Shown in pieces: positions 26,321 to 27,644 of a stretch of 64,000 bases of DNA (the stretch's first letter is position 1; every line of letters starts with the position of its first letter). This DNA comes from Eledone cirrhosa. Its lineage: Eukaryota. The notes under the pieces were generated by a model. It made no database searches. It was not told the origin of the DNA and worked only from the letters and a program-made list of their open reading frames with translations. Location: assembly GCA_964016885.1 (NCBI GenBank), contig OZ024741.1:391282001-391346000 (forward strand), given 5' to 3'. The translations under genes and the position numbers were made by a program.

Positions 26321-27644
26321 AGATATATATATAGATGTATATATATATATATATATATATATATATATATATATATATATATATATATATATTTATATAT
26401 ATATATATATATATATATATATATATATATATATATAGATATATATATATATATATTATATATATATATATATATATATATATATATAGATATATATATA
26501 TATAGATATATATATAATATATATATATATATATATATATAATATATATATATATAATATATATATATATATATATACATAATATAATATATATATATAT
26601 ATATATATATATATATATATATATATATATATATAGAGATATATATATATATAGATATAGATATATATATATAGAGATATAGATATATATATATATAGAT
26701 ATAGATATATATATATATATATATAGATATATAGATATATATAGATATATATAGATATATATATATATATATATATATATATATATATATATATATATAT
26801 ATATAGATATAGATATATATATATAGATATATATAGATATATATATATATATATATATATAGATATAGATATATATATATATATATATATATATATATAT
26901 ATATATATTATATATATATATATATAGATATAGATATATATATATATATAGATATATATATATATATAGAATATTATTAGAAAGTGAGGTTCTTTTTTAT
27001 AAAATGAAAAATAACCGAGGTGTCCTACACGAGTGGAAGTATAAAGAAAAAGAGATGAAATCGAAAATGCAACTGAAGTCTTATTTTTTAAAAAATATAT
27101 ATATTTATTTGGTTCCTTTACCGGTTTCGCAGCTCTTCTGCTTTTCAAAAGGTGAGTTGAGATGGAGGGTCTGTGGTATTTCTCACATGGGATATATCTA
27201 TTTAGTCCAGAATTAGCCGTCGAAACGGCTTGAGCTCAGCTGTCGGGGTCTTACTGGTTCCTATATATATATATATATATATATATATATATATATATAT
27301 ATATATATATATTATATATACTATATATATATATATATATATATATATATATATATATATATATATATATATATATCTATATCTATATATATATATCTAT
27401 ATATATATCTATATATATATATCTATATATATATCTATATATATATCTATATATATATCTATATATATATCTATATATATATATATATCTATATATATAT
27501 CTATATATATATATATATATATATATATATATATATATATATATATATATATATATATATATATATATATATATTATATATATAATATATATATTATATA
27601 TATATATATATATATATATATATATATTATATATATATATATAT

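Follow-up and report, generated by a model that had tools for sequence, protein, structure and literature searches.

Back-to-back fragments of two Penelope-like families in a TA repeat of Eledone cirrhosa: a single, ambiguous junction

In the 64-kb stretch of Eledone cirrhosa DNA analysed here (the window), positions 26969–27261 carry back-to-back pieces of two families of Penelope-like element (PLE) type inside a TA repeat, and this chimeric structure is real in the assembly. The initial annotation had read it as two different RNAs copied from the two ends of one break. Copying of two element RNAs of different families is supported, and a single break is possible, a part of the reading to which we give less than an even chance. 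For sequential insertion of two PLEs in separate target-primed events we see an even chance. The locus presents a single, ambiguous junction of two PLE-type fragments. The weights given to its explanations throughout are judgements and were not computed.

Genomic setting

TA tracts crowd this stretch of animal DNA (107 tracts, 13,137 nt, about one fifth of the window), whose repeat landscape would be reminiscent of cephalopods; its unmasked sequence amounts to 50,135 nt. Between the tracts lie short retroelement pieces, and several ORF remnants in the window have a reverse transcriptase (RT)-like part followed by a C-terminal GIY-YIG-type domain, which marks them as PLEs. The family letters other than C are our own labels. 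In the 21 TA tracts of at least 100 nt, interruptions are tract-specific (ATAGAT, ATCTAT, ATGTAT or ATACAT), with some switching inside one tract, and those on either side of the chimeric unit are mirror images of each other. The ATCTAT interruption is present in five of these 21 tracts and is densest beside the chimeric unit and its duplicate.

A strict scan for type I hammerheads gave six matches in the unmasked sequence, repeated copies included, against a mean of 0.13 per shuffle in 30 dinucleotide shuffles. Rfam gave no match in the window at gathering score, six chance-level matches without a hammerhead on 26960–27270, and no match on 40200–40425. The hammerhead motif of family D (54596–54632, 58585–58620 and 5099–5064) reads GCAA instead of GAAA in each of the three copies detected, so judged from the motif its activity would be atypical or doubtful. 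Family E has a long PLE-like ORF in two frames (2145–5046, minus strand), of a type different from those of C and D; a hammerhead scan of this element found none. The insertions at 9917–11473 and 23933–24917 are inverted arrays whose tandem unit measures about 490 and 310 nt, respectively, and neither hammerhead nor ORF was detected in them. At 60602–63808, an open ORF of 1,068 aa with endonuclease, RT and PHD-like finger (Pfam) belongs to an apparently intact LINE.

Anatomy of the chimeric unit

The unit and its flanks are composed as follows.

26323..26968, left TA tract, 646 nt, with interruptions chiefly of the ATAGAT type
26969..27043, minus strand, family C tail, 75 nt spanning the proximal to the distal insertion end, 67/70 against 23329–23397
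27044..27188, minus strand, family C pLTR piece, sharing its 5′ truncation point with the copy at 23404
27115..27152, minus strand, minimal type I hammerhead motif, U3-A8 core variant with 4-bp stems I and II and a 1-bp palindromic stem III
27189..27199, filler at the 5′-to-5′ joint, 11 nt, GGGATATATCT, three G followed by 8 nt equal to a variant unit of the right tract
27200..27261, plus strand, family B arm, 3′ half of the hammerhead, ending at the proximal site, with the 79-nt tail missing
27262..27645, right TA tract, 384 nt, with abundant ATCTAT interruption

The family C arm (26969–27188) is an inverted 3′ end of 220 nt, whose pLTR piece is the reverse complement of 22293–22438 (140/146 columns) and of 23404–23551 (141/148). 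Alignments and motif scan agree here with the initial annotation, which had described a minus-sense 3′ end of family C with a hammerhead at 27115–27152; read from 27152 to 27115, the latter is a sequence motif with putative cleavage. The family B arm is identical to 40279–40340 (62/62), and its plus sense is given by the hammerhead motif at 40235–40328. Its assignment to the family of the insertion at 39191, in plus sense, was thus correct, but it does not reach the outermost 3′ end of that family, which lies 79 nt further on, and it contains the 3′ half of the ribozyme only. The same proximal end is found at 13534 and 39192. Both outward-facing 3′ ends abut long TA tracts, as had been stated, and the end types of the chimera are distal for C and proximal for B. 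The filler is likewise present, with 11 nt instead of about 12 and one base away from where it had been placed. In loose ends of public data, C copies past 27188 and B copies before 27200 carry other letters, and because the copies of both families diverge there, the filler is bounded at 27189–27199.

The chimeric unit recurs near-identically, with the same filler, at 28995–29283, a copy that had been overlooked in the first reading. The two belong to a tandem duplication of about 2 kb (25638–27261 and 27646–29283) that begins with the following feature.

25638..26322, minus strand, LINE 3′ fragment, presumably CR1/L2-like by its translation, first part of the 2-kb unit and repeated at 27646–28332

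This LINE fragment gave no Pfam hit. The two copies differ at 6/689 columns in the LINE part, all indels, and at 7/294 in the chimeric part, and the differences are chiefly homopolymer or dinucleotide indels. Both copies are two-armed and neither is one-armed. Since the unit lies inside the duplication, the chimera counts as one event, not two. The duplication may be genuine, or it may be an assembly duplicate or two haplotypes placed in tandem.

Families C and B

Two copies in the window served as references for the arms, and in a cross-comparison no B match was found within 20231–22438 and no C match within 39192–40419.

20231..22438, plus strand, family C reference copy, ORF 20231–21295 and the 3′ region to the proximal site
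39192..40419, family B reference two-arm insertion, with complete hammerhead motifs at 40235–40328 (plus) and 39297–39204 (minus)

ORF 20231–21295 is 5′-truncated and contains YLDD, a zinc-finger motif and a GIY-YIG-like end; the YLDD motif is the ground on which it is assigned as a putative RT. The ORF itself gave no significant Pfam match, and it has 57% identity over 350 aa to ORF 52676–53896, which matches Pfam GIY-YIG above the cut-off; ORF 52676–53893 matched no solved structure. Both ORFs (20231–21295 and 52676–53896) have C-X4-C-X2-C. A CX2-5CxxC motif upstream of GIY-YIG is given in the available part of PMC8557442 as a mark of the Neptune or Nematis clade, and by this motif family C would be a candidate member of that clade. 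Family C shows the features of endonuclease-bearing PLEs, namely an ORF with RT and GIY-YIG, a hammerhead motif in the pLTR, an optional tail and an inverted 5′-truncated copy. Its two end sites are seen in copies of the window and in contigs of the public run X1, where TA lies directly at the C sites in 34 cases at 27040 and 21 at 26975. A non-LTR retrozyme, which consists of tandem short units with a type I hammerhead in each and no ORF (10.64898/2026.07.22.740005, as far as its available text goes), does not fit: family C has an associated ORF, and the 2-kb tandem unit holds a LINE and TA tracts.

Family B has the PLE features of hammerhead motif, tail, inverted arms and TA target. No ORF was recognised in 39637–40240 (plus frames) or in 39600–39900 (minus frames), and all copies in the window are 5′-truncated. 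In the hammerhead at 40235–40328, stem II is long and branched and stem III has 5 bp, an architecture with which the motif might cleave as a monomer. A search of metagenome, genome and viral contigs with a 23-nt pattern of the family gave no locus. A short hairpin-like ACTC...GAG motif, seen by eye, is common to the tails of B (40341–40419), K (6399–6485), F (22975–23064), T (45954–46061) and P (46660–46690); the likeness between the B and K tails has a pairwise p of about 0.03, uncorrected.

Two-arm insertions of one family

The window contains about 20 inverted two-arm blocks, and back-to-back arms of the same family are common among them. Families B, C, D, E and F have both end sites in at least two copies each. 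Tails range from about 30 to 160 nt, depending on the family. In 8/8 same-family two-arm insertions (13345, 39192, 23329, 50725, 57530, 22624, 40541 and 9416; hand-picked, with the E ends checked), one arm has a proximal and the other a distal end (0.5^8 = 0.004); a ninth insertion at 56388, with a proximal and an intermediate end, was excluded from this count. One of the eight provides a control for the chimera.

23329..23551, family C insertion with the tail on the minus and the pLTR on the plus strand, meeting at a 6-nt fold-back

Here the arms abut exactly in RNA coordinates, which is a clean twin-priming signature for a PLE and arguably better mechanistic evidence than the chimera. A twin-primed insertion has opposite arms with 3′ ends at both flanks, as the chimera does, and derives from one RNA with abutting internal breakpoints, as is found at 23329–23551 and not in the chimera.

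These insertions bear on a reading in which one break, with a TA target cut on both strands, received two RNAs: C would have been primed at the distal and B at the proximal site, the cDNAs end-joined, and the filler partly copied from the flank. We regard it as a possibility short of an even chance. The outward 3′ ends of the chimera obey the distal-plus-proximal rule of the eight same-family pairs (p 0.004 under even odds), the copy at 23329–23551 shows two-ended priming in family C with abutting arms, and the 5′ breaks lie where same-family joints fall, that of C at the palindrome centre 23401–23404 and that of B at 13483–13486. For sequential insertion the pair of one distal and one proximal end is a point against, worth a factor of about two; chance gives it in about half of the cases. 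As for the one-break reading itself, the chimera is one case (n=1), and the tails of B and C are without likeness, a shared recognition motif having been rejected (p 0.75). Even a single break would not imply the shared machinery that the initial annotation had deduced, because the proteins of the two families could extend one end each.

The same coincidence of both 5′ breaks with same-family palindrome centres speaks for a later deletion, in which a single repair event would have removed the inner arms of adjacent C and B palindromic insertions and joined the outer ones; long palindromes are prone to breakage. Such a history would take three events, no remnant of an inner arm is present, and long palindromes remain intact in the window; we consider it unlikely.

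Origin of the filler

The description of the filler as slightly TA-like and compatible with sequential insertion gains from a comparison with the tracts. Its last eight bases, read on into the first two of B, give a 10-mer that occurs 10 times in the right tract and not at all in the left, and that in the 50,135 unmasked nt has two occurrences only, in the chimeric unit and its duplicate; among non-tract 8-mers, 263/48,742 (0.5%) are substrings of the right tract. This match to the right tract, rare elsewhere, favours sequential insertion, and a remnant of the neighbouring TA tract fits the filler better than anything else tested. Sequential insertion is further favoured by the joints of single families: a TA run longer than 4 nt occurs in 0/18 joint windows from 17 same-family insertions, and the chimeric joint has one of 6 nt. 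The difference between this tract-like filler and all 18 same-family windows is at the same time evidence against one break.

On the other side, three G of the filler are left unexplained by the tract-remnant reading, and the nearest ATCTAT variants lie 92–114 nt past the B end, so the variants may be younger than the insertion; both points count against sequential insertion. Single LINE-1 events can moreover contain filler templated by DNA close to the target, according to the available part of PMC11702581, which also weighs against two separate insertions. BLAST aligns the filler as a mutated copy of a hairpin upstream in B. Since B copies vary there (the loose-end agreement upstream of the arm is 0.56–0.60), this may be its origin even though the resemblance is at chance level: an equal score is reached by 1,600/20,000 random 11-mers (8%) and by 2,502/20,000 tract-derived ones (12.5%). 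The lack of significance here tells against the one-break reading. Taken as a fold-back of the C end, the filler gives a weaker match.

Cross-family neighbours

Eleven other cross-family neighbours were hand-picked, with the sense of J, K, M, N, O, P and U taken from the TA-facing end alone. Their spacers measure 10–42 nt, and seven pairs are tail-to-tail, two head-to-head and two head-to-tail. The presence of all three arrangements with TA spacers favours sequential insertion. The TA-spaced head-to-head pairs break the end rule, both ends being of proximal type in D/J at 6166 and of distal type in E/K at 47160. Single arms with the 5′ end directly on TA are found at 6166 (with TA overlap), 20231 and 46996, and sequential insertion gains from such joints as well. 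It is also made easier by the abundance of TA, about one fifth of the window, and by the high repetition of both families. The longest TA run in the chimeric spacer, 6 nt, is the shortest among the 12 cross-family spacers (10–33 in the others), and this is again a point against sequential insertion.

Public reads

Part of the stretch is contained in 8/11 public runs. Depth was taken from X1 and X5 (contigs) and from X9 and X10 (raw reduced-representation reads); X1 is possibly the same sample as the assembly and is not independent. In the bin of the joint, depth is 10.9 in X9, compared with 519 on the C side and 1,642 on the B side; the corresponding values are 11.7, 627 and 1,645 in X10, 4,454, 321,914 and 823,386 in X1, and 57, 1,505 and 2,712 in X5. 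The joint depth in raw reads is about 2% of the C flank and about 0.7% of the B flank, and overhanging ends may account for all of it. With both arms very deep and the joint shallow, the chimera is not a common amplified form. In two X10 reads, maybe of one molecule, the 3′ ends of B and C face each other with about 9 nt of TA between them. This tail-to-tail joining of B and C is an arrangement that twin priming cannot make, and it favours sequential insertion. Pile-ups of X9 and X10 read ends at 27200 and 27211 were considered as truncation hot spots and rejected, since AATT sites are present there in some copies and the libraries are restriction-based; a restriction enzyme would presumably lie behind these ends.

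These data also bear on whether the chimera arose as an artefact of assembly or library, or as a composite element spread as a unit, which we hold to be very improbable. The homopolymer and dinucleotide indels between the tandem copies are like those of a noisy long-read consensus, and no record spans the joint or reaches the unique flank among the matches listed (16 of 9,092 pieces). The filler is, against this, identical in both tandem copies, and X1 and X2 contain 15/24 sampled words compared with about 44% expected from family-wide letters (p 0.06, weak). Locus-specific letters occur in about 1–2% of X9 and X10 reads, a share that divergent copies would be expected to yield, and these reads were given no weight as support. 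For a composite element, the low joint depth relative to the flanks makes wide amplification unlikely.

A proposed order of events

Under sequential insertion, a C cDNA would have been primed at the distal site in TA and halted after 220 nt, and its 5′ end would have been joined to the tract. A B cDNA, primed at the proximal site, would later have entered the same tract about 8 nt from the C joint and in the opposite direction. It would have been joined via an AT overlap, and the leftover 8 nt would make up most of the filler. The 2-kb segment would afterwards have been doubled, either by a genuine genomic duplication or by the assembly. We infer this order, the tract origin of the filler and target priming itself from the observed identities, orientations and ends of the arms and from the observed duplicate.

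One locus whose filler resembles the tract is too little to bear the claim of one break; if sequential insertion is correct, the chimera is an ordinary pile-up in a microsatellite. That PLEs prime both ends of a TA break, one distally and one proximally, and that these ends are able to take RNAs of different families, is conceivable, and we would lean against it at present. If true, two-ended priming across families would suggest two RT sites working on separate RNAs, and would offer a route for mixing between families or for mobilising families that have no ORF. Two ideas exist for back-to-back PLE arms: self-priming on antisense RNA (available part of PMC3846280) and priming on both target strands (available part of PMC11167929). 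Fold-back of a single RNA cannot produce a cross-family pair at one break; if such pairs were over-represented across the genome, this would therefore speak for two-ended priming. The count should be easy in this genome, which is rich in several families within TA tracts.

Comparison with known systems

Endonuclease-bearing PLEs are described in the available parts of PMC8557442 and PMC3846280 as having an inverted 5′-truncated pLTR, a tail at one end and TA targets, and the same-family arms of the window agree with this picture. The likeness extends to head-to-head arms, a one-sided tail, a hammerhead in the pLTR, TA microsatellites and strong 5′ truncation. The inverted arms described there are of one family, whereas the chimera joins two, and the tails measure 30–40 nt as against 75–79 nt for C and B. 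No report of a cross-family two-arm PLE insertion was found in the open-licence literature. Rotifer PLE types are presented as not cross-mobilised in the portion of PMC3846280 at hand, which speaks against two families at one break; the bearing is indirect, as endonuclease-bearing and endonuclease-free types are concerned.

The Anolis Poseidon protein acts on both strands in vitro by cleavage and extension, uses two internal start sites and is a predicted dimer (available part of PMC11167929), and its action on both strands lends support to the one-break reading. It resembles the present families in the two internal starts that bound the tail, in the cutting and extension of both target strands and in the AT-rich target. 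It differs in that its start site has no homology to the target, while proximal ends in the window overlap the tract by TA(T), and in that the RNA of one family was used in those assays and two families meet in the chimera.

For LINE-1, the available text of PMC11702581 reports nine two-transcript insertions and ascribes the opposite-orientation ones to ligated ends extended on different templates, so that a mechanism of one break and two RNAs has already been proposed there; that such insertions are on record also counts in favour of one break at the present locus. Their joints show microhomology or untemplated bases, and three insertions contain sequence templated from DNA near the site. Those events arose de novo in cultured human cells with a known empty site, whereas the chimera is an old germline microsatellite locus, whose TA flanks of 384–646 nt hide the empty site and any target duplication.

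Minimal PLE hammerheads are characterised in the available part of PMC4209133 by U3-A8 covariation, a short stem I and a palindromic stem III, and are mostly single in truncated copies. The family C motif is the U3-A8 variant described there, and the family B motif, with its long branched stem II and 5-bp stem III, is unlike the minimal form.
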